Of a DNA stretch of 58,446 nt, positions 605 through 29,652 are shown piece after piece (the stretch's first letter is position 1; each line of letters opens with the position of its first letter). The stretch comes from Candidatus Zixiibacteriota bacterium (lineage in GTDB: Bacteria > Zixibacteria > MSB-5A5 > UM-FILTER-46-8). The notes beneath the pieces were generated by a model. That model was not told where the DNA came from. It was given only the letters and a program-made list of their open reading frames with translations, and did not search any database. The DNA lies in contig WJIJ01000086.1 of NCBI GenBank assembly GCA_014730345.1, positions 1-58,446 on the forward strand. Reading direction: 5' to 3'. The position numbers were made by a program, and so were the translations under genes.

Positions 605-2473
605 ATGAAATCCAAAACAACACTTATGATTGGCGCACTACTACTTGCAATCTGCTTCGGCGCAACAGCTTATGCCGGTGATTACACGATCGTCGACACC
701 GGGCAGGACAACTGCTACGATGAAAACAGCTGGATTGTTGAACCCGGAGTCGGGGAACCATTCTATGGACAGGATGCCCAGTACGACGGTTTCCAGCCGT
801 CTTACCGGGATAACGGCGATGGCACCGTTACCGACGTCAATACCGGTTTAATGTGGCAGAAAACCCCCTGCTTAGATCAAAAATTCGAGTTTTTCGAAGC
901 GTTGAACGGCGCGGATACATTCAGTCTCGCCGGTTATGATGATTGGCGTTTGCCGACTATCAAAGAGCTTTACTCGTTAATTAATTTCAATGGAAGTATC
1001 TACAATCTCGTACCTTATATCGATACGAATTATTTCGATTTCGCTTATCCAGATACCACACAGGGATGGCGTATAATCGATGCCCAGTATTGGTCAAGTA
1101 CTCAATACGTGGGCACTACTATGAATAATGAACCTACAGTATTCGGCGTTAATTTCGCCGACGGACGTATCAAGGGGTATCCGCGGGACAATGGACCCGG
1201 CGGGCAAACGATGACCGAATTCGTGCGCTATGTCCGCGGAAATATCAACTATGGCGAAAATAATTACGTTGACAACGGCAACGGCACAGTTATCGACCTC
1301 GCTACCGGGTTGATATGGCAAAAGACTGATGACGGCACCCCGCGCAACTGGGAGGATGCTCTGGCATACGCGGAAGGTTTGGAGCTTGCCGGGCATGATG
1401 ACTGGCGTTTGCCCAATGCCAAGGAGCTTCAGAGCATAGTTGACTACACCCACGCCCCCGATGCCACCGATCCCGAACTGGTTGGACCTGCTATCGACCC
1501 CGTTTTCGATATTACCAACACAGGCAGTCAGCAGGATCCTGACTATGGTTACTACTGGAGCGGTACCACGCACCTCGATGGTCCATACCCTGATTTCGCC
1601 TGCTACCAGACATTCGGCTGCGCCTGGGGGTGGATGGAGATTCCGCCTAATTCCGGCAATTATGTTTACATGAATGTTCACGGCGCCGGCGCGCAGAGAA
1701 GCGACCCTAAATCCGGCGATCCTTCTAACTGGCCCCATGGCAACGGCCCCCAGGGAGATGAAGTGCGCATCTATAACTATGTACGTTGCGTCCGTGGAGG
1801 TAATGTAACCACTATCAATATGATTCCCGATTCTTCCCCGGTTACCGTACCCCAGGGCGGTTCCTTCAACTATACCGGTATGTTGTTGAACAATACACAG
1901 CAATCGCAAACCGGTGATTTGTGGATTATGCTGGAATTGCCCAACGGCGCCGAGTATGGACCGCTCTATTTAATTGATGATATCTCAATGAACTCCGCGC
2001 AGAATATTATAGTGGATGATATCGAGCAATATGTTCCCACGTTCGCCCCCATGGGAACCTATAAGTACATCTCCTACTGCGGGATTTATCCCGATGTAAA
2101 GGTTGATTCTTCGGGTTTCGAATTTACAGTTATCTCCGGCGATGATTCCGGCGCGGATTCATGGGTACTGTCCGGCTGGTCCGGGGAAACTGGCGGTGAA
2201 CAGTTTCCGCTTAAAACCAGCCTGGATGAAAACTATCCGAATCCGTTCAACGCCGGTACCGCCATCAGCTATTCATTGGCAAATGATGCCGATGTTTCGC
2301 TTGCAGTGTACAATATCATGGGACAGAAAGTAGATGTCCTCTTTGCTGGCCATCAACAGGCGGGAGAGTACAAATTGAACTGGGATGGTTCGCCATTTTC
2401 ATCGGGTATTTACTTCTACAAACTGACCGCCGATGATAAATCTTTCACCCGACAGATGACCTTGTTGAAGTAA
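605..2473 (+). CDS. Secreted tandem DUF1566 (Lcl C-terminal) domain protein with MIPD module and C-terminal sorting domain
   Basis: Signal peptide; two DNGDGTV.D..TGL.WQK...DDWRLP..KEL.S repeats; NYPNPFN...RQMTLLK tail; caggag RBS. Confidence 0.88.
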   Translation: MKSKTTLMIGALLLAICFGATAYAGDYTIVDTGQDNCYDENSWIVEPGVGEPFYGQDAQYDGFQPSYRDNGDGTVTDVNTGLMWQKTPCLDQKFEFFEALNGADTFSLAGYDDWRLPTIKELYSLINFNGSIYNLVPYIDTNYFDFAYPDTTQGWRIIDAQYWSSTQYVGTTMNNEPTVFGVNFADGRIKGYPRDNGPGGQTMTEFVRYVRGNINYGENNYVDNGNGTVIDLATGLIWQKTDDGTPRNWEDALAYAEGLELAGHDDWRLPNAKELQSIVDYTHAPDATDPELVGPAIDPVFDITNTGSQQDPDYGYYWSGTTHLDGPYPDFACYQTFGCAWGWMEIPPNSGNYVYMNVHGAGAQRSDPKSGDPSNWPHGNGPQGDEVRIYNYVRCVRGGNVTTINMIPDSSPVTVPQGGSFNYTGMLLNNTQQSQTGDLWIMLELPNGAEYGPLYLIDDISMNSAQNIIVDDIEQYVPTFAPMGTYKYISYCGIYPDVKVDSSGFEFTVISGDDSGADSWVLSGWSGETGGEQFPLKTSLDENYPNPFNAGTAISYSLANDADVSLAVYNIMGQKVDVLFAGHQQAGEYKLNWDGSPFSSGIYFYKLTADDKSFTRQMTLLK

Positions 2474-2493
2474 TATTTATATAAATTGGGCGT

Positions 2494-2524
2494 AAAGGGC
2501 TGGGGTTAACTCGGCCCTTTTTTA
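2494..2524 (+). terminator. Rho-independent terminator
   Basis: aaagggctgggg-ttaa-ctcggccc followed by a T run just after the 2473 stop. Confidence 0.75.
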
Positions 2525-5956: not shown

Positions 5957-6844
5957 TTAATCCCGGGCTTCGCTCAACTTGTTTACCACTTTTATTTCGA
6001 TAGGGATGGTGAAACGGGAGCCGTATTTATTCTTGGCCTGGAATGTTACCGATTTGCCCATCTTGCCCAATCCAAAAGCCTCGGTATCTACGGTAAACGC
6101 TACTTCAGTGGACTCATCCGGTTTTAGAACTTTTTTATCGATATCAACCTTGATTATATCGGGAAATGGATTGTCGACTATCTGTAATTCCGATTCGGTA
6201 GTGTCGATATTGGTAATGGTCGATTTAAGGACCTCTTTTTCCCCTATGAGAACTTCGTTGACATCGAACATGTCCGGTTCCACCTTGAAATCGCTGTTGG
6301 GAATACCCGCGATAGCCTTAACTGAAATCATTGGATTCTGGTTAGTGGAATCGTTGCAGGTAATCCGCATCTTTTTCATTATCGTCTTTTTATACCTTTT
6401 GGTATGAAAAGTAAAGTCGATAAAATCATGTTCGCCTGGCGGAATAACTATCCCGCGTCTTTTCGTCGTCGTGCATCCTCACGTAGGTTTGATGTTAATT
6501 ATGGTGAGGGTGTCGGTTCCGGTATTGGATACCTTGAAAAGATGGGTTACATTGGTATGTTGCGGAACATTGCCGAAATCGAAAATAGTGTATTCAAGGG
6601 TTATTTTCGAATCGTTCAGGGGAGCATCCGCTTGTTGGGGCGGTCTGCGCCTGATGTTTTTCGGATTTGTTCCCGTGGGAGCGGGTACATATTCTACCGG
6701 CCGTCCGTCTTCGTTGCGTTTCGGCCCCCAATACTGCTTATCATCTTTATTAGAATCGGTATCCGGTGTAAATTGACTTTGAGCCGGCGTGAAAAGAATA
6801 AGGCCGGTTATAGCTGAGAATAACAATATTTTTAGTATTTTCAT
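5957..6844 (-). CDS. Exported DUF1573-domain protein with in-frame TGA, probable selenoprotein (T-U-G-C, Sec at codon 122)
   Basis: Track ORFs 6479..6850 and 5957..6379 are in one frame with only TGA 6481-6479 between them. Read-through gives INIKPT-U-GCTTTKRRGIVIPPGEHDFIDFTFHTKRYKKTIMKKMRITCND, matching the DUF1573 CGC motif. AGGAG 9 nt before ATG 6844; signal peptide. Confidence 0.8.
6439..6456 (-). promoter_or_regulatory. Candidate bacterial SECIS hairpin
   Basis: mRNA +23..+40 after UGA: GCGGGAU-AGUU-AUUCCGC, a 7-bp stem whose loop has G in second position. Confidence 0.55.
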
Positions 6845-7008
6845 AAACAAGAACTCCTGATCCTATATTGCATGCAAAATAATGATAGAATCGCAAAGGT
6901 CAAGTATTTTCCCTTGTTTGCGGTAAATCTTTTGGGCTTCAATCCCCCGGATGGGGGGATTGTAACCCTAATATATGAATTTTCGGAATATTTGTTCCAT
7001 ATATTAAT

Positions 7009-8055
7009 TTATTCCGGGGTATCAAAAGAGGAATCAGCCAGCGCCCCGAAAGCATAAGCAATTTCGTATGGATTCCAATCCTGATCGAAAAGGGCTAAGT
7101 AGTGTCCCGGATGAGAAACCTCCTCCGGCATTTTTACCTGGGTCCAGATGGCGAATTTCGCTCCCATTTCAGCGACTGAGCTGTATAAAGGATAAACATA
7201 TTCAACCTTAGCCGCGTTGAATTCCTCGAAATTATCATAGTTCTCCACTTTGGGCCATGTGCATTCGCTAAGCGCTAATTCCTTGCTCCGGTCAACATCC
7301 CAAAGCGCGTTTATAGGTATGCTCGGATCATAATGACCGTTAATGTGAACATCCCATATATCGAATTTACAATCCTTTAATTGTTCGCCCCAATCGGCTA
7401 TATCGGCTGAAGGAGCCAACCCGCATAAAATTACCTGGGCTTTGGGATCCAACTCCTTCACGATATCATAAAACATATCTGTCAGCGTCTTTAATTCTTC
7501 AACAGTGCCGTTCCAGTGGCCGTAATCCTCGTACCTCATAGGGAATGTGTTTGGCTCATTGATCAACTGGTAGTATTTTACCCTGCTCGCGGTTTGCCTG
7601 ACCATAAATTCCATGGCGGTCCGAAAATCAGCGGTATCCACAGGGGGCCAGCTTCCCTTTGTATAATAATTTATCTCCGGATGACCGGTCATCCATCCCC
7701 GGCTTATAGTTAAATGGAGCATAATATCGATGTGTTCTGGAATTTCATTGAGCCTGTTTTTTATCACCATGCTGTCCAACTGCCCCCGCTCCCGCTCGAA
7801 ATCAAGCCAGTTAGCGAATAACCTTACAACTTCCGGTTTTACTATATCCAGCCAGTAATCGGAAATTTCAATACGGCGCGGTATCCATACCCCTCTTTTA
7901 AAGGAATTTTCACTGGTTGTAAGGGTGGTATCCGGTTCATTGATTGTAATATCATCATTGTTTGTTCCCGGTTCGGTTCCCTTGTTTTTACCGCAACCCA
8001 TTAATGAATAACAGATTAGAATTACCATAAAGAATAAACATATTGTTCTTTTCAT
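7009..8055 (-). CDS. Lipoprotein with clan GH-A (beta/alpha)8 glycoside hydrolase domain
   Basis: Lipobox LMG-C; YYQLINEP acid/base motif; LALSEC nucleophile-like motif; aggagg RBS. Confidence 0.72.
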   Translation of the reverse strand: MKRTICLFFMVILICYSLMGCGKNKGTEPGTNNDDITINEPDTTLTTSENSFKRGVWIPRRIEISDYWLDIVKPEVVRLFANWLDFERERGQLDSMVIKNRLNEIPEHIDIMLHLTISRGWMTGHPEINYYTKGSWPPVDTADFRTAMEFMVRQTASRVKYYQLINEPNTFPMRYEDYGHWNGTVEELKTLTDMFYDIVKELDPKAQVILCGLAPSADIADWGEQLKDCKFDIWDVHINGHYDPSIPINALWDVDRSKELALSECTWPKVENYDNFEEFNAAKVEYVYPLYSSVAEMGAKFAIWTQVKMPEEVSHPGHYLALFDQDWNPYEIAYAFGALADSSFDTPE

Positions 8056-8390: not shown

Positions 8391-11300
8391 ATGGCCCAAA
8401 AATTAACCGTAGTGCTCTTGGCATTACTCCTCGCGGCAGGTTTTAGCGCGTCTGCCTTCGCCGGAGATATTGCCAGTGGTTTGGATAATTATATTATCCA
8501 GAACAACCTGCAGGAGGAGTTTACTCCTGTGATCATCGTCATGGATCAAAGAGTCGATACCAGGGCGATGAATGATGAGTTTGACGCTAACAACACCCCG
8601 CTTGCCGAACGTCATGCTTTAATCATGACCGCTCTGCAGGAAACCGCGGACAGAACCCAGATTCCGGTTGTTCGCAGAATTGAACAGCTTAAATCGGAAG
8701 GGCTGGTTTCTGATTACAGCCAACTCTGGATTTCAAACATTATATGCATGAGCGCGAAATATTCCGCCATCCAGGAAATCGCCTCCATGACTGCCGTCGG
8801 CAGGATTTACTATGATGCAGAGATGGAATTAATTGCTCCGGTCGATGAACCGAAGCCCGGTTCCGGAGGAGATCTGACTTCAGTCGAGCAGGGATTAATC
8901 GCCATCAACGCCAACGATGTATGGGCGATGGGTATAACCGGCTCCGGTACCCTGGTCAGCAGTTTGGATACCGGCGTGGACGGTAACCATCCCGCATTGT
9001 ATGATCGCTGGAGAGGGCATGACTCCCGCTACCAGAACAATCCCGAATGGGCCTGGCATGATCCCCTTACCGGAACTAATTTCCCGTTCGATGATGGTTA
9101 CCATGGAACCCATACGATGGGAACGGTATGCGGCGCGGATAATAGCGGCGGCGATACGGTTGGAGTTGCAGTAGATGCCGAATGGATTTCCGCCGGCGTA
9201 GTTGACCGCGGCGGCGACCTGCCTACCCGTATGCAACGTTATCTGGTAGCTTTCCAGTGGACAGCCGATCCCGACGGTAATCCCAATACTATGTGGGATG
9301 TTCCTTGTGTATCTTCCAATTCCTGGGGACATTATCCGGGGAGTATGCCCGGCGGCGATTGCGATGACTGGTACTGGGACGCCCTGGACAATCTCGAAGC
9401 TATGGGGTGTCTTGTAGTCTTAGCGGCCGGAAATGAAGGTACCCTCGGGTTGCGCAATCCGGGAGTAAGGGCTACTGATGATTATAACAGTTTCGCTATT
9501 GGAGCGGTGGATGGAAACACCACCGGCTGGCCCATAGCCTCCTTTTCAGCCCGCGGCCCCTCTTACTGCACCCCTTCCGGTGACCCGGCTATAAAGCCCG
9601 AAGTTTGCGCCCCGGGCGTGGACGTTAACTCCTGTTATCCCGGCGGAAGCTACACCACTTTGAGTGGTACTTCCATGGCTACCCCCCATGTAGCAGGTGT
9701 GGTCGCCCTTATCAAGCAGGCTAATCCCAATCTTACCACCGAAATGGTCAAGCAGATATTGATGGATACTGCTTACGACTTGGGTTCCTCCGGCGAGGAC
9801 AATACCTATGGTTGGGGAATGATTGACGCTTACGAAGCCGTTATGGTAGCGCTCAGCTATTTGCAGGGCTATGGCGTTATCGAAGGTCAGGTTACCGATG
9901 CTTTCTCCGGCGATGGGTTGGAAGCTACAGTAACAATTACCAACCGCCAGCCGCCGATCGTTGCCCAGTGCAACTCCTCGGGTTATTATTCAATGCTCGT
10001 GCCGGCAGACACTGCCTGGAACCTGCAGGCTGAATATCCAGACTACAGCCCTGGCTACGCCACCGTTACCGTTACCGAAGATGACACCGTAACCCAGAAC
10101 TTCCAGCTCAATCCTCCGCCGGTCGCTATTGATATGATACCGGATGAATATCCGATTTACCTGCATCCGGGTGAAAGCTTTACCTATACCGGCGTGCTTA
10201 CCAACCAGACCAGTATGCAGATATACGGCGATGTATGGCTTATGCTGGATGTGCCCGGTATTGGAATGTACGGTCCTCTTCAGCTTTACCAGCACGTACC
10301 TCTCGCTCCCGGCCAGACCATTACCGTGCCTGGAATTTCCCAGTACGTTCCCACATTCGCTCCTATAGGCACCTATGAGTATATTGCCATTGCCGGAATG
10401 TATCCCAACTATGAGCTGGCGCGCACTTCGTTTGACTTTACGGTTCTGCCCGAAGGCGGAGCCCCCGCCGAAGTATGTATCCTCTGCGCCGACTATACTG
10501 ACAATTGGCATGGCGCCCGCGATTTACTGCTTGATAATCCCAACGTATTAAGCGTTGATTTTATCGATGTACAAAACTCAACGCCTTCCCTTAATGATCT
10601 TCTGGCATACAATGTAGTTCTGGTATGGTCTAATTACCAATTCGCGGACGCGACCGCGCTTGGCAACGTGCTTGCAGACTTTGTGGAAGTCGGCGGCGGC
10701 GTGGTAACCTGTGAATTCGCCCATTACGGCGGATGGGCTCTCGGCGGAAGATACATGACCGATTACTCGCCTATGGGCGCCGGCAATACCGGATACGGCG
10801 ATGCCAATATCGTAATCGATGACCCCAACCATCCTATAATGATCGGTGTGAACAGCGGAAGCGAATATTACAACTTCAACGTTCCCCTTGCCGGTAATAA
10901 TCCGCAACTGCTCTGCCATTATGATAACGGTTACAACGGAACTATCGTGAATGGCGATGTGGTTCGCTGTGTGGCGCTGAACAATTACTTCGGCGACCAG
11001 CATGCCTCCTGGACCGGTGATATCGGCGCCATGATGGTCAATGCGGTAGTTTATTCCGCCGCTAACAGTTTCTCCTTAGCGTTCCCGTCTCCGGAAGGTT
11101 ACCTTGACGCTTATGCCGCCGAGGATGAAAACGTGGTAAGCGCCACCGTCGTTAATAATTCCATGGCCGCTACCGAAGTTATCGGAATGGCTGGACGCGG
11201 CGGTGCCGGTGAACTTCCAATAGAGTACGGTTTGAACGATGCTTATCCTAATCCGTTCAACGCTTCTGCCAAGATAGTGATCGCCCTGCCGGAAGCTTCA

Positions 11301-11483
11301 GTTGTAAATCTCGACATTTATAACCTTTCCGGCCAGAAGGTCGCTACTTTGATTGACGGCAAGATGGAAGCCGGTTACCATGATGTAACCTGGGATGCTT
11401 CCGAATACTCCAGCGGAATTTATTTCTACAGGATGAACGCCGGAGAATTCTCCGCTACCAAGAGAATGACCCTCTTGAAGTAA
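8391..11483 (+). CDS. Secreted multidomain S8 subtilisin-like serine peptidase (bacillopeptidase F-like) with MIPD module and C-terminal sorting domain
   Basis: Catalytic triad SLDTGVD / YHGTHTMG / GTSMATPHVAG; prodomain; carboxypeptidase-regulatory-like EGQVTDA domain; AYPNPFN...KRMTLLK; aaggagg RBS. Confidence 0.93.
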   Translation: MAQKLTVVLLALLLAAGFSASAFAGDIASGLDNYIIQNNLQEEFTPVIIVMDQRVDTRAMNDEFDANNTPLAERHALIMTALQETADRTQIPVVRRIEQLKSEGLVSDYSQLWISNIICMSAKYSAIQEIASMTAVGRIYYDAEMELIAPVDEPKPGSGGDLTSVEQGLIAINANDVWAMGITGSGTLVSSLDTGVDGNHPALYDRWRGHDSRYQNNPEWAWHDPLTGTNFPFDDGYHGTHTMGTVCGADNSGGDTVGVAVDAEWISAGVVDRGGDLPTRMQRYLVAFQWTADPDGNPNTMWDVPCVSSNSWGHYPGSMPGGDCDDWYWDALDNLEAMGCLVVLAAGNEGTLGLRNPGVRATDDYNSFAIGAVDGNTTGWPIASFSARGPSYCTPSGDPAIKPEVCAPGVDVNSCYPGGSYTTLSGTSMATPHVAGVVALIKQANPNLTTEMVKQILMDTAYDLGSSGEDNTYGWGMIDAYEAVMVALSYLQGYGVIEGQVTDAFSGDGLEATVTITNRQPPIVAQCNSSGYYSMLVPADTAWNLQAEYPDYSPGYATVTVTEDDTVTQNFQLNPPPVAIDMIPDEYPIYLHPGESFTYTGVLTNQTSMQIYGDVWLMLDVPGIGMYGPLQLYQHVPLAPGQTITVPGISQYVPTFAPIGTYEYIAIAGMYPNYELARTSFDFTVLPEGGAPAEVCILCADYTDNWHGARDLLLDNPNVLSVDFIDVQNSTPSLNDLLAYNVVLVWSNYQFADATALGNVLADFVEVGGGVVTCEFAHYGGWALGGRYMTDYSPMGAGNTGYGDANIVIDDPNHPIMIGVNSGSEYYNFNVPLAGNNPQLLCHYDNGYNGTIVNGDVVRCVALNNYFGDQHASWTGDIGAMMVNAVVYSAANSFSLAFPSPEGYLDAYAAEDENVVSATVVNNSMAATEVIGMAGRGGAGELPIEYGLNDAYPNPFNASAKIVIALPEASVVNLDIYNLSGQKVATLIDGKMEAGYHDVTWDASEYSSGIYFYRMNAGEFSATKRMTLLK

Positions 11484-12154: not shown

Positions 12155-12853
12155 ATTTATAATACTGAGGTAAGGCATACGGTTTTTACAAAAAGGGAAA
12201 AAATAGAAGCTTCCAAGTGGAGCGATTCGAAAACTAAAAGGGTTTTTGAAATTCTATTTTCGGGCACATTAATTCTGCTTCTATCGCCCATAATGATAAT
12301 GGTGGCGATATTGAACAAAATTCTGGATCCCAAGTATCCCATTATTTACAAACAGATACGCCTCGGCAAAAATGAGATCCCGTTTGAATGTTATAAGTTT
12401 CGCACCATGATTGACAGCCACGACAATGGTCAACCGTCGCAACCCAAAGAAAAGAAAGAGTTTACCAACGTTTTCGAACGTACCAAAGTTACTAACTGCA
12501 AGAAAATCACTCCCTTTGGCGCTTTAATCCGTAAGTACTACATCGATGAATTACCTCAGTTATTCAATGTTTTAAAAGGCGATATGTCCTTGATTGGCCC
12601 CCGTCCCAATGAAAAATATCAGATTGATTATATCAGAAAAAGTCATCGTGATTTCGAACGGCTGTTGAAAATAAGGTATTCCACCAAACCCGGCCTTACT
12701 GGACCATGGCAGGTCGACCCCAATAAATTCGACCTTACTGACAGGGAAATTATCCAGCGCGATATTGATTATATCCAGAATGCTACTTTGAAATCTGATA
12801 TTAAACTTTCTCTTGTTACAGTCCTGAGGGTCCTCGGCGGCTTTGGACAATAA
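12155..12853 (+). CDS. Priming sugar transferase (Bac_transf, WcaJ/CpsE-like), probable ATT start
   Basis: YKFRTM, DELPQLFNVLKGDMSLIGPRP, KPGLTGPWQV. The conserved N-terminal KRVFEILFS...LLLSP lies upstream of the track ATG 12293. AGGAGGT at 12143-12149 precedes in-frame ATT 12155. Confidence 0.85.
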   Translation: MYNTEVRHTVFTKREKIEASKWSDSKTKRVFEILFSGTLILLLSPIMIMVAILNKILDPKYPIIYKQIRLGKNEIPFECYKFRTMIDSHDNGQPSQPKEKKEFTNVFERTKVTNCKKITPFGALIRKYYIDELPQLFNVLKGDMSLIGPRPNEKYQIDYIRKSHRDFERLLKIRYSTKPGLTGPWQVDPNKFDLTDREIIQRDIDYIQNATLKSDIKLSLVTVLRVLGGFGQ

Positions 12854-12942
12854 AGCATTTTCCATTTTACGAAATTTATATTTGCCCTTTGATAATTAGG
12901 GCATTTATTTTTTATTTTCGAGAATATCAAAATTGATCGAAT

Positions 12943-13713
12943 ATGAATGATAATCCTTTGTTAAATGAAGTTTCGGATAGGGAAGTTGAACTCCTGGGCA
13001 CAAAGCTATGCAAATGCACCATAGAAGAGGGAGTGAATTTAATCGATGATGCGATTTCATCCGGAGGTAAGTACCGTGTTATCATCCGTAATGCCGCCTG
13101 CATTAATCTATCTTTTGCCAATGAAGAATACCGCGATGCAGTAGCCGGTTACCATATGCGTTTCGTGGATGGTATCGGTGTTTACCTTGCCGGTAAAATC
13201 CTCAAAGGCATCGGGTTTCCGGATTTAGGGGGTAATCCTTTCGGAAGGGCAATACTTCAGCGTTGCGCCGAAAAAGGATACAGGGTTTACCTGCTGGGCG
13301 CTAAACAGGAAGTTGTGGCTAAGGCGGCGGAGAATTTTCAAAAATGGCATCATGGATTAAAAATCGCCGGTTATCATCACGGGTACTTCGACCTTGAAAA
13401 CTGCGGTGATATTATCGAGGAGATTAATAAAACTGAACCCGACCTGGTGATGGCCTGCTTCGGAAAACCTGAAGAGGTTTTCTGGATTGCGCGTAATTTC
13501 GATAGTTTGAGAGCGAAAGTTATGATTCCCATGGGCGGATTTTTTGATTTCCAATCCGGGCATACTCGCAGGGCGCCGGAATGGATTTTAAAGATGCGTT
13601 TCGAGTGGCTTTTTCGCCTGCTTATCGAACCAAGACGACTATGGAGACGCTATATCATAGGCAATACCATTTTCATGACCCGCGTTTTCCGTTATAAACT
13701 ATTTGGTAAGTAA
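12943..13713 (+). CDS. WecB/TagA/CpsF family glycosyltransferase
   Basis: DGIGV, VYLLGAKQEV, GYHHGYF, GGFFDFQSG..RRAPEW.....FEWLFRL..EPRRLWRRY. Confidence 0.92.
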   Translation: MNDNPLLNEVSDREVELLGTKLCKCTIEEGVNLIDDAISSGGKYRVIIRNAACINLSFANEEYRDAVAGYHMRFVDGIGVYLAGKILKGIGFPDLGGNPFGRAILQRCAEKGYRVYLLGAKQEVVAKAAENFQKWHHGLKIAGYHHGYFDLENCGDIIEEINKTEPDLVMACFGKPEEVFWIARNFDSLRAKVMIPMGGFFDFQSGHTRRAPEWILKMRFEWLFRLLIEPRRLWRRYIIGNTIFMTRVFRYKLFGK

Positions 13714-17524: not shown

Positions 17525-19488
17525 GGCGGTTTTTAACTCCCATATCGATATTATTCTTTATTTCGGGGGCATTTCTTTACACCAGGACTCCTGATATTGG
17601 TCCCAACCTGCCCTTATTCTATAGCGGTTTTATCCTTTCCTCGGCCGGCTACCTCGGATTGCTTTACAGGGGATTGCCGCGGAAAAAGTTTGCATGGTGG
17701 GGGCTACTTTTCCTTCTGATTTTCCTGCCCCGGATATTCGCGCTGAACCTGACTCCCTCCGATGATATCCCCCGTTACATCTGGGAAGGACGGGTTTTGC
17801 TCGAAGGTTACAGCCCGTACTCTGTCTCGCCCGATGACCCGCGGTTGATTGAGCTCCGCGATGAAAGCTTTTGTTTAATCAATCATAAAGATATGCCCGC
17901 TATCTACCCGCCTTTGACGCAGTATATTTTCACGGCGGTTTCCGTGGCAACCCGAAGTGTTTATGATTACCGCCTGTTTGTGCTGTTGATTGAAATTATA
18001 TCAATCGCGCTAATGCTGGTATGGTTAAAACTGGAACGACTTCCACTTGATAGAATCCTCATCTACGCCTTAAATCCGCTGGTAATAATCGGTATAGCAG
18101 GTCATGGGCATCTTGACCCGTTGCAAGTGGTAATATTAGCAGGCGGATTATATCTTTATTCGAAAGGAAAAACCGGCTCCGGTATGTTGATAGTTACCTT
18201 TGCCGGACTGATTAAATTCCTCGCCTTTTTCGCGCTTCCATTCATGGTCAAAAGGCGTACCCTGAAGCACTTACCGCTATGCGCACTGACTGTCATTGTC
18301 TCTTACCTGCCATTCTTCTTCCTCAAGGGCGGTTTCAGTTTCGGAAATATGAGGATTTACGTCGGCGAGTTCGAATACTATTCCCTAACATTCGCCATCC
18401 TGCGCTGGCTTGCGGGAACGGCGGGGGCGCATGTCATTACTGCCGTAATCCTCTTTGCAGTTATGGCATCGCTTTATCTTACCCGCACAAAAATAGAACA
18501 TGCGATGTTGCCATTTCTATTTTTGGTCACTTTGATGAGTACGACAGTTCATTACTGGTATATTATCCCTCTTCTTGCTTTGAGTATCGTTGCCAAATCC
18601 CGCCCGTTGATAGCGTTGTCGCTACTGTTTATGCCCTATTTCGATGTGTTCGAAAAATTCACTAACGAGGGTATTTGGGAAGGGGAATGGTGGCGGCAGT
18701 TTGCTACCTATGTGCCATTCCTGGTTATCTTCTGGTTAGAGAAGAGCGGACGTTGGTTTAAAACAGGCGCAAGGAAGTATTCCCTGGGAGTGGTTATTCC
18801 CGCATTGAATGATGAAGCGCATTTGCGTAAACTGTTTAAATCGATAGAAAAATCGGACATAGACCCAAGCAAAATCGTGGTTGTAGATGGAGGAAGTAAT
18901 GATAATAGCGTGGAAGTTGCCGAGAAATGGGGAACAACGGTTATTAAAAGCGCTACCCGGGGCAGGGGAAATCAAATCGCGGAAGGGATTAGCAAACTGG
19001 ATACCGAACTTGTCTTAATAGTACACGCCGATAATGAAGTACCTTCGGATATAAGAAGGAGAATAGTAAACGCCGCCAACGCCTATCAGGATTCCGCGGG
19101 AGGATCATGCCGCATGGAGTATGACCCGGGAAGTATAAAATCGAAACTCCTCGCTGTTTTAAGTAATGCCAAGACTGCTTTATTGGGATTGAGTTTTGGG
19201 GACTCGGGACAGTGGTTTCATAAAAGCAGGATAGAGTTTCCGGCTTTGCCATTGATGGAGGATGTCGAGTTGGCAATCAGGATAAATGACCGGGGGCATT
19301 CGGTATGGACTCCATGCAAGTTGACTGTTTCAACCCGCCGTTACGCGAGAAAAGGATTTATACCAGTCGCCTTATCCGTGATCGCCCGAACCTCTAAATA
19401 TCTTTTTCAGAGACGGTGGTACGATAAAATCCCCGATACAAAAAGTATGTATAAGGAGTATTACGCTAATGCACCGGGTAAGAGTTAA
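17521..19488 (+). CDS. Fusion: GT-C (GT87/DUF2029-like) polytopic domain plus C-terminal TIGR04283-like GT2 domain
   Basis: N-part SDDIPRYIWEG, IYPPL, ALNPL...GHLD; C-part VVIPALNDE, VDGGSND, GRGNQ, VHAD, LMEDVEL; ATGA overlap with the upstream gene. Confidence 0.78.
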   Translation: MRRFLTPISILFFISGAFLYTRTPDIGPNLPLFYSGFILSSAGYLGLLYRGLPRKKFAWWGLLFLLIFLPRIFALNLTPSDDIPRYIWEGRVLLEGYSPYSVSPDDPRLIELRDESFCLINHKDMPAIYPPLTQYIFTAVSVATRSVYDYRLFVLLIEIISIALMLVWLKLERLPLDRILIYALNPLVIIGIAGHGHLDPLQVVILAGGLYLYSKGKTGSGMLIVTFAGLIKFLAFFALPFMVKRRTLKHLPLCALTVIVSYLPFFFLKGGFSFGNMRIYVGEFEYYSLTFAILRWLAGTAGAHVITAVILFAVMASLYLTRTKIEHAMLPFLFLVTLMSTTVHYWYIIPLLALSIVAKSRPLIALSLLFMPYFDVFEKFTNEGIWEGEWWRQFATYVPFLVIFWLEKSGRWFKTGARKYSLGVVIPALNDEAHLRKLFKSIEKSDIDPSKIVVVDGGSNDNSVEVAEKWGTTVIKSATRGRGNQIAEGISKLDTELVLIVHADNEVPSDIRRRIVNAANAYQDSAGGSCRMEYDPGSIKSKLLAVLSNAKTALLGLSFGDSGQWFHKSRIEFPALPLMEDVELAIRINDRGHSVWTPCKLTVSTRRYARKGFIPVALSVIARTSKYLFQRRWYDKIPDTKSMYKEYYANAPGKS

Positions 19489-20219
19489 TCGGCAGGCTTT
19501 TCCTCTGAGGGAATGTCCTCTACAATACGGTAATCGTAATAATCGCCGCCGAGTTTGAAACTGATATCCACTATTCCCAACAGCGCCTTCACCCTGCCGA
19601 CCATGTTGAAAGTGGAGGGGACGTAGGCCCCGTTTTCGAGTTTTTGGAAATTTAAAGTGATGTGCGCTTCCTTCAGCTTTTCCGGGCGGGGGATTACGAA
19701 ATCCATGTGTTCCACCCTGAAATCTTCCTTGTCGATATGATACACACCATCAACCTGTCCTTTATCAGGCTTTTCCGTCCTGGGTTTTACCGAAATGATA
19801 TAGGATGTATCAGTTTCCCCGATTAGCTGGTAGTTGTATGCTGGATCCCCGATTTCCAACTTTGCCCCGAAATTCTCCTTGTTATCTTTATCTTTTTTGT
19901 CTTTCTGTTGCCGCTTTTTAGCATCCTCGCTGGTGGCATAAGATATCCTGCGTTCTATCTCTTCCTCGCCCCGTATAGTAACGACCGAAATAACCGTATC
20001 AACCTCTTCATACTTCCCTTCATTGTCAATTTTACCGGAAACAATTTTCTCGGTAAACTGGTATGCGATATCTTTCCATTTTTCCTTCTCTTCTTCCGAG
20101 TTGGCTTTAGTTTTTGCAATTATTTCATCCACGGTTAAATCCGCGCACATGGCCCGATGGTTTTGTGTCGGAATCAAACTAACCGCGAGGCTTAGAAAGA
20201 TAAGCAAGTACCGCATCAT
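19485..20219 (-). CDS. Hypothetical exported protein (possible LolA/LolB-like beta-sheet fold)
   Basis: Signal peptide, beta-strand periodicity, overlaps both neighbours; no diagnostic motif. Confidence 0.65.
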   Translation of the reverse strand: MMRYLLIFLSLAVSLIPTQNHRAMCADLTVDEIIAKTKANSEEEKEKWKDIAYQFTEKIVSGKIDNEGKYEEVDTVISVVTIRGEEEIERRISYATSEDAKKRQQKDKKDKDNKENFGAKLEIGDPAYNYQLIGETDTSYIISVKPRTEKPDKGQVDGVYHIDKEDFRVEHMDFVIPRPEKLKEAHITLNFQKLENGAYVPSTFNMVGRVKALLGIVDISFKLGGDYYDYRIVEDIPSEEKPAD

Positions 20220-20926
20220 TTTTCTCCGCTCTTATTAAGTTCACCTTCAAAGAAGGGTATTTTATTTATAATTCTTACGGTCTCCGGTATATTCTCTCGC
20301 GCCGCGCGGGTCATCCTGCCGATATCATCAATCAGCCGGCGGAGGTCATCGATTGTATCGACATCGTTTCGGAGTTTCAATTCGTATAAATTTATGCTGA
20401 GTTCCTTAATCCTGCTTAAAGTAGAACTATAGACTCCCGACGAGCCCCAATCGATATCCTCGAATAACTGTTGATAGGCATGTTTAAGCCCTATCAGGTA
20501 ATAACCGCCGTCCTCCGCCGGACCGAGAACTATACCATCGGTTTCCAGAGCTTTAAAAGCTTCGCCTATATCGGCAATATCAATGGTGGGCACATCACTG
20601 CCTATTATTACCGCTTTTTCATATCCCTCGTTAAATAGCTCTGCGAAGGCGTTGAGCATTCTCTCTCCGAGATTTTCGCCCTGTTGAGGACGTAATTCCA
20701 CTTCGAAAGTAGCCCAAAAGCTATCAACGATGTTGCTATGATAAAGGTAAACGTAGAAATCATAATATTCGCTTCCTTTTAGTTTATCCAGCAGGTCTCT
20801 AATGAACGCCTTGTAAAGATTCGCCGACTGATCTTCATTCAAGTGCGGGGTTAAACGGGTTTTACATTCTCCCGGCACAGGGTCCCTGGCGAACATTACT
20901 AATACATTTTTACTCTTCCTGGTCAT
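20216..20926 (-). CDS. TIGR04282 family (DUF2064, CofC-like) transferase
   Basis: FARDPVPGECKTRL, QQGENLGERM, IIGSDVP, LGPAEDGGYYLIG, DVDTIDDL. Confidence 0.9.
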   Translation of the reverse strand: MTRKSKNVLVMFARDPVPGECKTRLTPHLNEDQSANLYKAFIRDLLDKLKGSEYYDFYVYLYHSNIVDSFWATFEVELRPQQGENLGERMLNAFAELFNEGYEKAVIIGSDVPTIDIADIGEAFKALETDGIVLGPAEDGGYYLIGLKHAYQQLFEDIDWGSSGVYSSTLSRIKELSINLYELKLRNDVDTIDDLRRLIDDIGRMTRAARENIPETVRIINKIPFFEGELNKSGEK

Positions 20927-21746
20927 TTAAGGTCCAATCGTAATCATAATATTTTATTTTGGGTTTGTTATTAATTATATAGGATGACAAATTTTCATCA
21001 GCGTAATTTATTATATAGTATAACAACCACCGTTCCTTATCTTTATAGTCCGAAAGCTGAGGGGGATTCGCGTCGGTTTTAAAATCATCAGCGTACCATT
21101 TGAAAATCTCTGAAAGCTCTACAGTATTTACCTCACGGTTAATCCGCACCCCGCCTTTCTCATTAATAAACTGCCTGGTTGCTATTTTTAGCTGATAATC
21201 GAGGGAATCGGGATTGAAAGCGTAGCTTTGCAGTGGAGGACATCCTATGGAGGCGCAAACCAAAGCGAAATGAATCTCCGGTTTATAGAATCTTTTACGG
21301 ATTATCTCATGCTCTATCTTATCGAGGGAAATATCTTCCCCCATCACTTCCGACCAACTCTTCTTCCAGAAATCGGAAATCTGGCGGATACTGCTTTTGG
21401 GAAAACGTAACCTGGAGACCAGGGAACCATAGCCGATAGGGTAATTCTCGATAACCCCAAATATGGTTATGGCGTTATAGGCGTTTATCCAGAAAGCCAG
21501 CCGTTCATTTTCTTCCCAGTTCACAAATTCATGTTTGTTTACGTGTTTAAGTTTATCGAGATAAATATTCAAAAGCCGTGGATTCTCTTTGATACCGCTG
21601 TAATCTACCCGGCCATTGCTGACATATTCTTTAAGCAGGCTGTCATAATGGGCATGACTGAATTCACCGGCGTTGATACATGGGCTAAACAACGCAATAA
21701 AGGCAATTATGAGTATTACTTGAAATCGTCTCATTTTCTTATCCAA
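20910..21746 (-). CDS. DUF547 domain exported protein
   Basis: LAFWINAYNA, SLDKIEH, IHFALVCASIGCP, LSEIFKWY..DF, YDWTLN. Confidence 0.9.
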   Translation of the reverse strand: MDKKMRRFQVILIIAFIALFSPCINAGEFSHAHYDSLLKEYVSNGRVDYSGIKENPRLLNIYLDKLKHVNKHEFVNWEENERLAFWINAYNAITIFGVIENYPIGYGSLVSRLRFPKSSIRQISDFWKKSWSEVMGEDISLDKIEHEIIRKRFYKPEIHFALVCASIGCPPLQSYAFNPDSLDYQLKIATRQFINEKGGVRINREVNTVELSEIFKWYADDFKTDANPPQLSDYKDKERWLLYYIINYADENLSSYIINNKPKIKYYDYDWTLNDQEE

Positions 21747-22425
21747 ACTTGTAAAATTTCGCCAGGTATGCGGGAGAAACTCCCAGCCTGTAAGCGAGTT
21801 TCAAGAGGTTGTTTCTTACATAAACTTTGATAATCCCTTCTTTGCGCCATCGTCTACTGGATGTTTCCATCGGGTCTTTCAGGATTACCACTTTGCCCTG
21901 CCTTTTTAACCGTTTGCAGAAATCCATATCCTCCATAAGAGGTATATTCTTGAACCCGCCGATTTTTTTGAAAACTTCTTCGCGTACGAATATTCCCATA
22001 TCACCATATAGCGTTTTTTTCAACCGGTTTTTCAAATTTGAAGTCGATTGCAGGTATTTCATTAACCTTGGAAAATTATCCAGCTTCCAGTAAAAACCGC
22101 CTCCAACTACGCTTTTATCTTCAAGCGCTTTCCTGATAGAATGAATTGAAGTTTTAGAAGGTTTACAGTCGGCGTGGACAAACCACAGGATATCTCCACT
22201 GGCAATCCGCGCTCCGGCGTTCATCTGGGAGCCCCGGCCCCTTTCCGCGGTGATTGAATGGGCATGTTTGCGCGCCAGCTCTATGGTACTATCAGCGCTT
22301 CCACCGTCGACAACAATAATTTCCGCCGAATCATCAAGCGAACGAAGATATTCAAGCTGATTTTGGATAATGCCCGCTTCGTTTAATGCTGGTACAATTA
22401 TAGATACCGATAATTTGTCGCCCAA
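21739..22425 (-). CDS. TIGR04283 family GT2 glycosyltransferase
   Basis: IIVPALNEA, VDGGSAD, GRGSQMNAGA, FVHAD, YGDMGIFV, LMEDMDF, TSSRRW. Confidence 0.9.
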   Translation of the reverse strand: MGDKLSVSIIVPALNEAGIIQNQLEYLRSLDDSAEIIVVDGGSADSTIELARKHAHSITAERGRGSQMNAGARIASGDILWFVHADCKPSKTSIHSIRKALEDKSVVGGGFYWKLDNFPRLMKYLQSTSNLKNRLKKTLYGDMGIFVREEVFKKIGGFKNIPLMEDMDFCKRLKRQGKVVILKDPMETSSRRWRKEGIIKVYVRNNLLKLAYRLGVSPAYLAKFYKFG

Positions 22426-25665: not shown

Positions 25666-27483
25666 TTACTTTACCATAGTCATACGTTTTGTGAAAACTT
25701 TGCCTTCGGCATTGAGAGTATAGAAATAGATTCCGCTGGCATGTTTGGTGCCGTCCCAATCCACGAAGTGCTGACCGGCGTTGATATTGCCTTCAACCAG
25801 GGTTTCGACAAGCTGACCGGCAAGGTTGTAGATTTTTAAAGTTACAAAACCATCACGGGGAGCGTCGAACTCGATAACGGTCGACGAGTTGAATGGATTC
25901 GGATAATTAGTACCCAGCGAGTACTCGGTGGGCACCATTTCGTAATCCTGCTTTTCTACGGTTCCCCAGCCGTAAGCCTGCCAGGAATCGCCGTCGCCTG
26001 CAATCGGCGGGACAATTGTAAACTCGAATGAGGAAGAATCGAGCTTAACTGAAGGATAGATGCCGGCATACGAAATGTACTCATATACGCCTGAAGGGGC
26101 GCCGGCCGGTATGGTCTGGACCACATTGGGTACTGACAGCGATTGAAATGGCGCGAGAGGAACTCCGCCGATCTGGAGAGTCGGTCCATAATATGTTCCC
26201 CACGGGGCTTTGACCATTGTCCATACGCCGCCGGTGGTCTGGTTGCCGGTGTTGTTTATTAATGTTCCGGTAAAGGTGAACGAACCGCCGGGATTCACGG
26301 TAACCGGGGGATAATCCGGCACCATGTTTACCGTAACAGGGTTTGATGGATACCTGTTGATGGTAAAACTTTCGATGATATCGCCGCCTTTTTTAACGGA
26401 TTCGAAGTAGAGATTATTACCTTCAATGCTGATTTTGCTGATATGATGGCTCATGCTTGTTTTTACAACATTCGGATACCAGGGCCAGGGCGGGTAGAGC
26501 GGACCGCCGCCGCCGGCGGTGGTGATATGCTGGATTCCATTTACAACCGCCCGGGCGTAGAAATGGCAATGCCCCGCGAATATCATACAAACATCATACT
26601 GCTCGAGCAGGGGCTGAATATAATTCTGGATGTCTTCATTATTATCGTGTCCTCCGGCGGACCATCCGGGTTCATGGAAGGTGGCAAATTTCCACAGCTT
26701 ATCAGTCGATGATAAGTCATCGATTATCCATTGGTGCTGTGCCGAACCCGGGGAATAATCGGTGTACTCGTCAATTACCGTGAAATGAGCCGGACCGTAA
26801 TCGAATGACCAGTATCTTCCGCCGCTTTCATGGGGATAGGGAAGGTACTTGTCGAAACAGTTGCCGGGGGTATCATGGTTGCCGTAGGTCGACTGAAATG
26901 GCAGGGTAGAGAGCATTTCATTTATGCTTTGATAACCTGTACCGAGCAGATGGTCGTCCCATTCCGATTCGCTGTCACCGTCATTTACGAGGTCGCCAAC
27001 CGAAATTATAAATGTCTGGAAATCAGGATCGGAATTGACTGTGGTCATGACCCGCTGGCAGACTTCGTCATGGGTCCCGGGGAATGTACGGGAATCACCG
27101 TAGGCGATAAACTTCAGATTAAGCTCATTCTCATGGGCGGCGGACCTGAAAGACCCCGTTTTAACATCTCCGCCGGCGGTTACCCTGTAGAGATAACGGG
27201 TACCCGGGGAGAGGTTGTTTATGGTGTAGGTGTGCTGATGATCACTGCCATATTCGGCAGTAACTTCGTTGCCCATACCGTAACCGGTGTCGGTGCCCCA
27301 TTCAATGGTACAACTCATGGTTGAGTTTAACTGCCACATGATTTTCATGCTGGTATTATCGTTTTCATAGATGCTGTATGGCCTTTTGCGGAAATTCTGC
27401 GCTTCGGCGGAAGCGGCCAGGACCACGAACATCATGGCAACCAGCAGTGTACCGATCAATACTTTTCCTGCGATTCTGTTCAT
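25666..27483 (-). CDS. Secreted metallophosphoesterase (purple acid phosphatase-like, FN3 N-terminus) with MIPD module and C-terminal sorting domain
   Basis: YGDSR, VGDLV, YGNHD, FHEP, AGHCH calcineurin-like motifs; NYPNPFN...KRMTMVK. Confidence 0.88.
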   Translation of the reverse strand: MNRIAGKVLIGTLLVAMMFVVLAASAEAQNFRKRPYSIYENDNTSMKIMWQLNSTMSCTIEWGTDTGYGMGNEVTAEYGSDHQHTYTINNLSPGTRYLYRVTAGGDVKTGSFRSAAHENELNLKFIAYGDSRTFPGTHDEVCQRVMTTVNSDPDFQTFIISVGDLVNDGDSESEWDDHLLGTGYQSINEMLSTLPFQSTYGNHDTPGNCFDKYLPYPHESGGRYWSFDYGPAHFTVIDEYTDYSPGSAQHQWIIDDLSSTDKLWKFATFHEPGWSAGGHDNNEDIQNYIQPLLEQYDVCMIFAGHCHFYARAVVNGIQHITTAGGGGPLYPPWPWYPNVVKTSMSHHISKISIEGNNLYFESVKKGGDIIESFTINRYPSNPVTVNMVPDYPPVTVNPGGSFTFTGTLINNTGNQTTGGVWTMVKAPWGTYYGPTLQIGGVPLAPFQSLSVPNVVQTIPAGAPSGVYEYISYAGIYPSVKLDSSSFEFTIVPPIAGDGDSWQAYGWGTVEKQDYEMVPTEYSLGTNYPNPFNSSTVIEFDAPRDGFVTLKIYNLAGQLVETLVEGNINAGQHFVDWDGTKHASGIYFYTLNAEGKVFTKRMTMVK

Positions 27484-27525
27484 TTTAAAACCTTTCGTTA
27501 AATTATAGCGATTGAAAATGTTGAC

Positions 27526-29652
27526 CTATTTCAACAACGACATTCTTTTGGTTACTGTCTTTTCGCCGTTGGAGAGCCTGTAGAAATACACGCCGCTGGC
27601 GTATTCAGAGGCATTCCAGGTTATATCGTGTTCTCCGGCCTCCATGAAACCATCAACAAGAGATTCAACCCTCTGGCCGAGGATATTATACACATCGAGG
27701 TCTACCTTGCCGGCCCTGTCAAGGCTGAATGCGATATTTGTGGCGGCATTGAACGGATTCGGGTAGTTTTTATCCAGGGCAAAACGCGCCGGCAGTGATT
27801 CACCGGAATCTCCCTCAAACCATCCATAAAGTTTCCACTGGTCGGCTGAACCGCCCAGGGGAGCGATAACATTGAAATTGAAATATGAGGAATCGTAAAT
27901 TGTGCTCGGGTAACGTCCGGCATAGGAGACATATCTATAAGTTCCCTCCGGCGCGAATACCGGCACATACTGGGTTACATTCGGTACGATGATAGTCTGG
28001 CCGGGAGACATGTAGATATTGTTGAACTGTTGAAGGGGACCGTAGCGGGTGCCGTCGGGAAGCTCCAGCATTATCCAAACGTGCCCCACAACCGGTTGCC
28101 CATTGGGATTCGCCAGTTTCCCGGTAAACTCAAAAGAACCGCCGCGAGCTACATCCACCGGCGCGGAATGCGGTATCATGGCGATATTGACCGGGATGAC
28201 CTCTCCCCATTCTATATTTAGAATAGGCCTCTGGCAATAATCCATCTCTTCCTCGGAAGCGAAACGGAACACGCCCTCGGTTCCGAGCGGCGATTGGTCT
28301 CTCAATATGAAACCGTTGTTCAGAGAAGGATTATCGAACCATTCGCGCACCGTGTTGGTTACATCCCATTTTATCCACTGGCTGGTAGCGGTGGACACGG
28401 AAAGGTTAGTAAACGATGACGGGTATTCACTCCGGTCGCTGTTCACCATATCACAGCCGGGAGTATCCCAGGGCAAATATGCGAATTTCGCGAATCCGTG
28501 GGTAGCCCAACCCGAACCGGATGGGGCTGTACTGCCGTAGAATTCGTATGGATTTCCATCCTCGCCATGGCCCTCGCCCCATTCCTTGTAAACTTCGAAA
28601 AGGGCAAGGGTTTTATCCGCCGATTGCGATTGTGCGCGCTCGGTGAAATAGAGGTTCAGTTCAGCTTTGTGTATTGCCGGTTCAGGCGGAGTTTCCGGCA
28701 GTTCGAATTTTATAAGGGCGCTCTTACGGTCATTGCCGCCGTCCTGGCCGCCAACCTCAAAACGGGTTTCCGCGCCGGTGTTGTTGTCCGGGTGAGATGC
28801 CCGCAGGAAGGTACCATAGGCGTCATCATAAGCGAATTCGCGATATGAATGCTGGTATGCCCATTCGCCGTCCTTCAGAATATGCCAGCATCTTATCATC
28901 TGCTGGGCGGCAAGAGCCGCGTCATCGTTGATACCGCCCGGGAAATAATCCTTGTAGTTATTATGGGAGAACGGGATGTCCAACAGCAACTCGAGGTACA
29001 TTAACCATCCGCTGACGTTTTCTCCGGTTATCCCCAACTCGATCCAGTTGGTTCCGGAAGCTATTGTATCCGCGGTGACCTGGGGCATTCCCGCCGCGTG
29101 GTACACTTCGACCCAGGTATCATACGGCCAGTAATAATCAGGAGTCCATGGGTACTCGCCCTCTTCCCACATCATAAAAATATCGCACCCGTATTCTATA
29201 AATCCATGAGAATTATTATCCTCGACCATGGCTACCGGCAGGAACGCGGTACTGTCATATATACCATGCCAGGGGACATCGCCATAGGTATGCGATGCCG
29301 CTCCCATCAGGAATACAATTTCACGCTGTTCGGCTTCATCAAACGGATAACTCACCCGGTGCCGCAATACTTCCACGTAGTGGTCTATCCAGAAAGCTTC
29401 ATGGGCTATTTCGGAGATTGGAGGATTATCGGTCCATCCAATGTCAGGGGACATGGATCCGCAATAAAGTTCATCGAGATGGCTTTCAATCATCTGCGCG
29501 AGTTCTGCTTCACCCTGGGCGTAGAGATGAGGTATCGCCCGCTGGCCGACCATCCAATGGTTGCGTATCCCCAGGGAATATGCAGTCGCCGTATAAAACA
29601 GGATAGTGATAATTATCACTAAGGAACATCTAAACAGGTAACTATTCTTCAT
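27526..29652 (-). CDS. Secreted zinc-dependent phospholipase C/nuclease-like protein with DNRLRE-like domain, MIPD module and C-terminal sorting domain
   Basis: GIRNH after the signal peptide, GSMSPD, AHE, GAASHTYGDVPWH; LRASHPDNNTG...KSALIKF..P....I.KAELNLY; NYPNPFN...KRMSLLK. Confidence 0.8.
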   Translation of the reverse strand: MKNSYLFRCSLVIIITILFYTATAYSLGIRNHWMVGQRAIPHLYAQGEAELAQMIESHLDELYCGSMSPDIGWTDNPPISEIAHEAFWIDHYVEVLRHRVSYPFDEAEQREIVFLMGAASHTYGDVPWHGIYDSTAFLPVAMVEDNNSHGFIEYGCDIFMMWEEGEYPWTPDYYWPYDTWVEVYHAAGMPQVTADTIASGTNWIELGITGENVSGWLMYLELLLDIPFSHNNYKDYFPGGINDDAALAAQQMIRCWHILKDGEWAYQHSYREFAYDDAYGTFLRASHPDNNTGAETRFEVGGQDGGNDRKSALIKFELPETPPEPAIHKAELNLYFTERAQSQSADKTLALFEVYKEWGEGHGEDGNPYEFYGSTAPSGSGWATHGFAKFAYLPWDTPGCDMVNSDRSEYPSSFTNLSVSTATSQWIKWDVTNTVREWFDNPSLNNGFILRDQSPLGTEGVFRFASEEEMDYCQRPILNIEWGEVIPVNIAMIPHSAPVDVARGGSFEFTGKLANPNGQPVVGHVWIMLELPDGTRYGPLQQFNNIYMSPGQTIIVPNVTQYVPVFAPEGTYRYVSYAGRYPSTIYDSSYFNFNVIAPLGGSADQWKLYGWFEGDSGESLPARFALDKNYPNPFNAATNIAFSLDRAGKVDLDVYNILGQRVESLVDGFMEAGEHDITWNASEYASGVYFYRLSNGEKTVTKRMSLLK

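Follow-up and report, generated by a model that had tools for sequence, protein, structure and literature searches.

What do four secreted proteins of unrelated predicted function, encoded on a single bacterial contig, have in common, and what could the common part do? The question is raised by contig WJIJ01000086.1 of a Candidatus Zixiibacteriota bacterium (assembly GCA_014730345.1), whose 58,446 nucleotides were analyzed as a whole and are here called the window. An earlier note on this DNA had described a stretch of about 105 amino acids, referred to below as the module, shared by a DUF1566 protein, an S8 peptidase, a phosphoesterase, and a protein resembling zinc-dependent phospholipase C (PLC). 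We find that all four stretches belong to a so far undescribed family of protein domains that deserves its own database entry. It is a new domain family in a known architectural role, rather than a new kind of system: it occurs in cargo of T9SS, the type IX secretion system, and the current understanding of T9SS is not challenged. With a probability of roughly 0.55, we read the module as a lineage-specific, cargo-independent stalk or surface-retention domain that precedes the C-terminal sorting domain (CTD) and contacts a shared envelope partner.

Translation recovered all four copies where the earlier note had placed them (Table 1); their first residues are MIPD, MVPD, or MIPH. The note had left unstated that copies 3 and 4 are minus-strand features, readable solely on that strand, the plus strand being stop-riddled nonsense. 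The copies align over 106 residues without a gap, at 44-55% pairwise identity and with 32 invariant columns. When a hidden Markov model (HMM) was built from three copies and applied to the 644 six-frame open reading frames (ORFs) of the window, the remaining copy was recovered with E-values from 1e-35 to 1e-44, so the significance of the alignment is not in doubt. The four-copy HMM found no fifth copy among the six-frame ORFs of the window, the next ORF having E=1.7. At the DNA level, the copies are 51-58% identical, and identity at third codon positions (33-40%) is near saturation. Thus, the copies are ancient and have been kept by selection on the protein; the same identities rule out recent duplication or an assembly artefact as their source. 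That the likeness arose by chance, reflects a low-complexity repeat, or stems from a degenerate copy of the CTD can be regarded as refuted by the leave-one-out E-values, by the thousands of relatives described below, and by an hhalign probability of only 0.2% in a control comparison of the module profile with the immunoglobulin (Ig)-like CTDs of the window. The last value is the reason for rejecting origin from a Por_Secre_tail/FlgD_ig domain.

The earlier note had not recognized the module as a named domain, and the databases agree. Pfam-A contains no match to the four window copies at E<=10 and no recurrent match to 50 family members at E<=1, and no NCBIfam model matches the module. Among PDB sequences, the four-copy profile matched nothing, and the only match to the 50-sequence profile was the Vibrio cholerae protein RbmA at E=0.027, which is not significant. 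The names given to relatives at NCBI are 'T9SS type A sorting domain-containing protein', 'DUF1566 domain-containing protein', and 'hypothetical protein'. A literature search found no paper pairing Zixibacteria with T9SS or type IX secretion, and nothing on this module in the literature on domain architecture before the CTD.

Word-indexed protein search is blind to this family: the four-copy alignment retrieved nothing, and an alignment of 50 sequences retrieved one fragment. An exhaustive search with the four-copy profile against 1.84 billion cluster representatives (50% identity) of public genomes and metagenomes yielded 2,563 family representatives at E<=1e-3, 1,089 at E<=1e-10, and 89 at E<=1e-30. 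In a scan of GTDB with one genome per species, 13 module loci were found in four metagenome-assembled genomes (MAGs), three of which are labelled Zixibacteria. The fourth MAG, CAZLVS01 (L007, L009, and L010), is labelled 'uncultured Ignavibacteria'. This label is probably wrong, because the module genes of CAZLVS01 agree in order and protein length with their counterparts in the Zixibacteria MAG WJIR01 (L005 and L006), and the C-terminal stretches of L006 and L007 are near-identical. All five organism-named clusters that were looked up belong to 'candidate division Zixibacteria'. The proposal that the module is lineage-specific therefore holds, the Ignavibacteria-labelled genome being the only departure among organism-labelled relatives, and the family is characteristic of Zixibacteria. 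Its genes tend to lie together: L005 and L006 each hold three, L007, L008, and L009 each hold two, and the window has a similar adjoining pair at 25666-29652.

The proposal of an Ig-like fold fared equally well in structure prediction and fold comparison. AlphaFold (AF2) models were made for the bare module, that is, with neither the tail described below nor the CTD. With four sequences as input, the mean predicted local distance difference test score (pLDDT) was 80; with 50 sequences, pLDDT rose to 95.7, with a predicted TM-score (pTM) of 0.84, and the model is an eight-strand beta-sandwich. The module is thus predicted to be an Ig-like sandwich of about 106 residues. A Foldseek search of PDB returned generic Ig-like/E-set domains alone, at 10-17% identity and best TM-scores of 0.6-0.72. 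They include the fibronectin type III (FnIII) domain of RbmA, CARDB (0.66-0.67), the N-domain of glycoside hydrolase family GH66 (0.68), RhoGDI, macroglobulin MG domains, NPC2, the FnIII-like domain of GH3, and a porphyran carbohydrate-binding module (CBM).

The best structural match is provided by the RbmA-like FnIII domain (PF22021; V. cholerae RbmA, PDB 4kkp/4be6), with a query TM-score (TMq) of 0.71-0.72. Motifs of RbmA and of the family profile also correspond plausibly where the two align, in the form G-G-x-F-x-F-T...L-x-N...V-x-F/V-W-M...P-D-G...P...G-x-Y. The PF22021 model gave sub-threshold matches to two of 50 modules (best E 0.0023) and no match to the four window copies at E<=10, and hhalign aligned the module profile with a shallow RbmA alignment at a probability of 22.7% (pairwise E 9e-4), compared with 0.2% for the control, the Ig-like CTDs of the window. 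The two differ in other respects: identity is only 15-17%, and RbmA is a free two-domain matrix protein of a gammaproteobacterium, not a module of T9SS cargo. We consider the RbmA-like FnIII domain the closest known relative or analogue of the module; the sequence signal is weak, and membership in that family is not established. CARDB (PF07705; PDB 3idu/2kl6) is similar in another way, being an Ig-like sandwich of the same size that aligns over the whole domain (TMq and target TM-score TMt 0.66-0.71) and, like the module, is common in surface and secreted proteins of uncultured prokaryotes. It differs in that identity is 13% and in that a separate CARDB domain occurs in two of 76 module-bearing proteins. 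Membership in CARDB is rejected, as a comparison of 50 modules with PF07705 gave no match at E<=1; the likeness is at the level of the fold.

The tie of the module to the CTD, which the earlier note had noticed in the window, extends to the family. The annotations it had given to the four hosts agree with Pfam and NCBIfam, as does the position of the module, directly N-terminal to the CTD in three hosts and internal in the S8 peptidase, where 343 residues follow it. The four hosts and the beta-helix cargo at 29894, which indeed lacks the module, all carry a CTD of the Por_Secre_tail/TIGR04183 type, scoring 37-42 bits in Pfam (cut-off 27) and 41-49 bits in NCBIfam (cut-off 23). The host N-termini, read by eye, are hydrophobic and resemble Sec signals, with the ends AYA-G, AFA-G, AEA-Q, and AYS-L. 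For the 150 best relatives, position and copy number were counted. In 118 of them, the module is followed by 100-120 residues, the length of linker plus CTD, so that an Ig-like domain stands immediately before the CTD as in three of the four window copies; the NPFN motif occurs within the last 110 residues in 128. Most of these proteins (139) contain one copy, while eight contain two and three contain three; such tandem copies are frequent in stalk or adhesin domains. Among 76 full-length representatives scanned with Pfam, 68 have Por_Secre_tail at E<=1e-5, and the relatives lacking it are mostly contig-end fragments.

The cargo preceding the module is very diverse. In the same Pfam-scanned subset, more than 15 unrelated families are found N-terminal to it, including S8, C1, C25, M14, M28, FG-GAP, Omp28, PETase-like, Beta_helix, BNR, and CARDB. 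The suggestion that the module marks a cargo subclass is not borne out: the module-less beta-helix cargo of the window has module-bearing homologues elsewhere, and therefore the presence of the module does not follow the cargo family. The same diversity bears on whether the module is a substrate-targeting CBM that binds an environmental polymer and brings the enzymes to their substrate. The fold likeness to accessory domains of glycoside hydrolases (the GH66 N-domain, the GH3 FnIII domain, and the porphyran CBM) and the weak similarity to RbmA, which binds Vibrio exopolysaccharide (PMC5605196), are in line with such a function. The substrates of the cargo, in turn, are unrelated (proteins, phosphoesters, and lipids), which makes one environmental ligand for all of them improbable, and the fixed position before the CTD speaks for the envelope of the producing cell, and against substrates, as the target. 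We regard a substrate-targeting function as very unlikely.

Despite the unrelated hosts, the module itself is highly constrained. The consensus of 163 modules starts with M-I-P-D-N-P-P-V-x-V-P-x-G-G-S-F-T-F/Y-T-G-I-L-x-N-N-T, continues with D-V-W-I-M-L-x-L-P-G...Y-G-P...F-N-N-I-P-L-x-P-x-Q-T, and ends with Q-x-V-P-x-Y-A-P-L-G-T-Y-D-Y-I-A-Y-C-G-D-Y-P...D-S-A-S-F-x-F-T-V. At each of about 30 positions, more than 90% of these sequences agree, and the nearly invariant residues include the polar and aromatic D33, W35, Q70, Y81, Y83, and D96. Two short motifs are also nearly invariant, N-N-T at module positions 24-26 and D-S-(A/S) at positions 96-98 (1889-1897 and 2105-2113 in copy 1). The general O-glycosylation motif of Bacteroidota is D-(S/T)-(A/I/L/V/M/T), and the D-S-A of the module would fit it.

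The conserved unit usually continues beyond the last strand of the module. A short connector rich in G, D, A, and S leads, about ten residues after the module, to a W-x-L-x-G-(W/G/S)-(F/W) motif that the earlier note does not mention (the W tail). Downstream of it, a variable, acidic linker precedes the CTD, which begins with NYPNPFN; the distance from the end of the module to NPFN is mostly 34-42 residues. In the window and the GTDB loci, some form of the W tail follows all 21 CTD-adjacent modules, as a strict W-x-x-x-x-W in eight and, read by eye, as a looser W-x-L-x-G-(G/S)-(F/W) in the rest, and none of the CTDs that lack an adjoining module has one. The W tail also follows some internal module copies (P0001, P0059, and P0078), which leads us to reject the motif as a part of the module-CTD junction. 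It was not found in the tightly packed tandems P0002 to P0004, nor after the internal copy of the S8 peptidase. Because it follows internal copies but not all copies, the W tail is best described, as judged from sequence, as an optional C-terminal extension of the module, the two together spanning about 125 residues. In the folded protein, the tail may form an extra strand, a clasp, or a recognition peptide.

Could the module and its tail then be an extended secretion signal, read by a PorV-like shuttle or by a PorU/PorZ-like complex and raising export or processing? The module adjoins the CTD at a narrowly distributed linker length, and no CTD-adjacent module examined lacks the W tail, which some internal copies have as well; the study of RgpB from Porphyromonas concluded that motifs in both adjoining Ig-like domains dictate CTD processing (PMC4804311). 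The counterevidence is that neither an adjoining module nor a W tail accompanies two CTDs of the window and further CTDs in related loci, and that module copies are also found in internal and tandem positions, well away from the CTD. In addition, the pairwise divergences of module and CTD, compared in 125 proteins that have the two and were selected by module score, show only a weak correlation (r=0.14, a value reached in four of 300 permutations), so the pair does not look like a single co-evolving unit. We thus consider a signal function quite unlikely. The weak correlation also rejects the possibility that the module and CTD travel as one cassette.

Comparison of homologues shows how the module behaves in evolution. 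The window phosphoesterase is 100% identical to relative P0005, although a search for contigs encoding it gave no record, and the DUF1566 protein has a full-length module-bearing orthologue in a Zixibacteria MAG (L004, 48% identity). In sequencing runs, word sharing reached only 5-8%, in metagenomes that include one from a hypersaline lake, and no source run emerged. Homologues of the module-less beta-helix protein of the window (P0104 and P0109) contain a clean insertion of about 125 residues, consisting of the module and W tail and located past the last cargo residues (DMGAYGG) and ahead of the acidic linker. In other genomes (L010 and L011), the S8 catalytic domain is joined to the module and CTD but without the region of 260 residues that separates them in the window. 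This region (residues 690-950; 10458-11240, plus strand) is a second unnamed stretch of the S8 protein and has no match in Pfam, NCBIfam, or PDB sequences. The block of module, 260 residues, and CTD recurs behind other N-termini in P0123, P0115, L013, and P0011, at 48-52% identity. The clean indel and the recombinations involving S8 and this block indicate that the module is a discrete shuffled unit, apparently needed neither for folding of the cargo nor strictly for the presence of a CTD. The block with the 260-residue region is another such unit.

A precedent for this architecture is found in Porphyromonas, where the CTD of T9SS cargo is removed by PorU and the cargo is attached to anionic lipopolysaccharide (A-LPS) (PMC5445135). 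In RgpB, an Ig superfamily (IgSF) domain directly precedes the CTD and has been proposed to act as a spacer or insulator, and the length of the linker controls A-LPS attachment (PMC4804311). The IgSF domains of P. gingivalis RgpB, Kgp, and PPAD (Peptidase_C25_C, PF03785) and the module are both Ig-like sandwiches between a catalytic domain and the CTD, both are joined to the CTD by a linker, and both are expected to stay on the mature surface protein. They are not the same domain. PF03785 matches none of 50 modules at E<=1 and is absent from the top 50 Foldseek matches; it was detected once in a module-bearing C25 protein, in a full-length scan that does not give its place relative to the module. 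The module is larger (106-125 residues, compared with about 85 in the gingipain IgSF domain), has a longer linker (about 35 residues, compared with 9), possesses its own W-x-L-x-G-W tail, and is much more conserved across unrelated cargo. Finally, it serves more than 15 cargo families in Zixibacteria, whereas the gingipain domain is known from Bacteroidota.

This parallel raises the possibility that the module is a passive spacer or insulator, an inert Ig-like domain that holds the cargo off the CTD so that the translocon and sortase have access, and that has no binding partner. A position equal to that of the RgpB IgSF domain (PMC4804311), the generic fold, the dispensability of the module in some homologues, and the occurrence of tandem copies are all natural for a spacer. 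Inert spacers, on the other hand, normally drift and are swapped with PKD or Fn3 domains, while here about 30 positions are nearly invariant across 160 modules of unrelated proteins. In the 125 proteins with both domains, the mean pairwise identity of the module (44.6%) approaches that of the CTD signal (51.3%), a comparison biased by the selection of these proteins by module score. A passive spacer is a serious alternative, and still an unlikely one.

We favor a stalk or retention domain, which would operate as follows. The module stands as an insert between a type A T9SS sorting domain and whatever Sec-exported cargo precedes it, be this a protease, a phosphoesterase, or a lipase-like, lectin-like, beta-helix, FG-GAP, or other protein. 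The cargo would fold in the periplasm and be taken through T9SS by the CTD, which a sortase would then remove by cleavage within the acidic linker, so that the mature protein would end in the module, at its C-terminal, envelope-proximal side. In this place the module could act as a common stalk or retention domain that spaces the enzyme from the anchor point and contacts a component common to all cargoes, most likely a lineage-specific surface glycan or, alternatively, the attachment machinery. The analysis establishes that the family exists, together with its fold class, position, cargo independence, lineage restriction, and indel behavior, while removal of the CTD, retention at the surface, and a binding partner are inferred, starting from T9SS biology in Porphyromonas. 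Conservation across paralogues, tandem copies, and the faint resemblance to RbmA tilt us, on evidence that is weak, towards a specific envelope partner over an inert spacer.

Several observations weigh against the proposed stalk or retention role. Zixibacteria are uncultured, so that PorU cleavage and glycolipid attachment are carried over from Porphyromonas; the comparison of module with CTD conservation is biased by selection of the proteins by module score; some cargo dispenses with the module, as do the beta-helix protein of the window and the CTD of its S8 peptidase, which has no adjoining copy; and the internal S8 copy does not fit a strictly anchor-proximal role. A bolder version of the retention role, tentative and rather unlikely in our view, is that the module and W tail form a Zixibacteria-specific, non-covalent retention device, distantly related to RbmA, that would bind the cell's own polysaccharide of the O-antigen or exopolysaccharide type, for whose synthesis much of the window codes, just as RbmA directly binds the exopolysaccharide of the Vibrio cell that makes it (PMC5605196). 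If true, dozens of unrelated T9SS-exported enzymes would be gathered into an organized surface coat, and the device would replace or complement covalent attachment to A-LPS as it is known in Porphyromonas.

Whatever its partner, the module appears to mark much of what an uncultured phylum is predicted to secrete by T9SS. A family model would improve the annotation of several thousand metagenomic proteins and provide a clean marker for Zixibacterial surface enzymes. To our knowledge, retention of T9SS cargo on the surface outside Bacteroidota has not yet been studied, and a constrained, cargo-independent domain at the very site of cargo processing and anchoring provides a tractable way to approach it. 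Fused to other proteins, the module could also be used for surface display.

Table 1. Module copies, host genes, sorting domains, and polysaccharide gene sets in the window.
Feature	Positions	Strand	Remarks
DUF1566 gene	605-2473	+	two Lcl_C/DUF1566, module, CTD
Module copy 1	1820..2137	+	aa 406-511 of DUF1566/Lcl_C protein (605-2473)
W tail WVLSGW after copy 1	2162..2179	+	after G/D/S/A-rich connector
Type A T9SS CTD, DUF1566 protein	2234..2470	+	
S8 gene	8391-11483	+	Peptidase_S8 and CarboxypepD_reg, module, unnamed ~260 aa, CTD
Module copy 2	10134..10451	+	aa 582-687 of S8 peptidase (8391-11483); internal, no W tail
Type A T9SS CTD, S8 peptidase	11244..11480	+	no module adjoining, no W tail
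Bac_transf, WecG, several GT2	12293-22425		
Phosphoesterase gene	25666-27483	-	Pur_ac_phosph_N and Metallophos, module, CTD
Type A T9SS CTD, phosphoesterase	25669..25905	-	
W tail WQAYGW after copy 3	25966..25983	-	
Module copy 3	26008..26325	-	aa 387-492 of purple-acid-phosphatase-like metallophosphoesterase (25666-27483)
PLC-like gene	27526-29652	-	Zn_dep_PLPC and DNRLRE/CBM96, module, CTD
Type A T9SS CTD, PLC-like protein	27529..27765	-	
W tail WKLYGW (then F) after copy 4	27820..27837	-	
Module copy 4	27862..28179	-	aa 492-597 of Zn-phospholipase-C-like and DNRLRE/CBM96 protein (27526-29652)
Beta-helix T9SS cargo, comparator	29894..31372	-	CTD, no module, no W tail
GT2, NDP-sugar enzymes, C-methyltransferases	41115-47478		
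Wzx-like, Wzy_C, Wzz genes	50443-54956		

Among the 30 ORFs of the window scanned for context, no component of the T9SS machinery was recognizable. The window is rich in surface-polysaccharide genes, which form two large sets (12293-22425 and 41115-56460) flanking the T9SS cargo genes. Together they include at least five GT2 glycosyltransferases, an NTP_transferase, an epimerase/dehydratase, two C-methyltransferases, a Wzx-like flippase, and Wzz/GNVR. These genes are compatible with a glycan-linked surface layer, and their location near the cargo genes may be coincidental.

Three further observations concern genes close to the cargo. The 348-residue product of 7009-8055 (minus strand) is a predicted lipoprotein, with an N-terminal signal ending in Cys, and matches no Pfam or NCBIfam family. 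Two adjoining short ORFs on the minus strand, 5957-6379 and 6479-6850, each encode a portion of a DUF1573/HYDIN-VesB-like Ig domain. Profile positions 1-40 are all that the upstream ORF matches, at its very end, and a frameshift or stop may have split a single gene into the pair. Beside the cargo genes, at 31626-33209 (plus strand), lies a gene for a multihaem cytochrome c that contains Cytochrome_cB and an MtrC/MtrF-like domain II/IV, whose product is a candidate for extracellular electron transfer.

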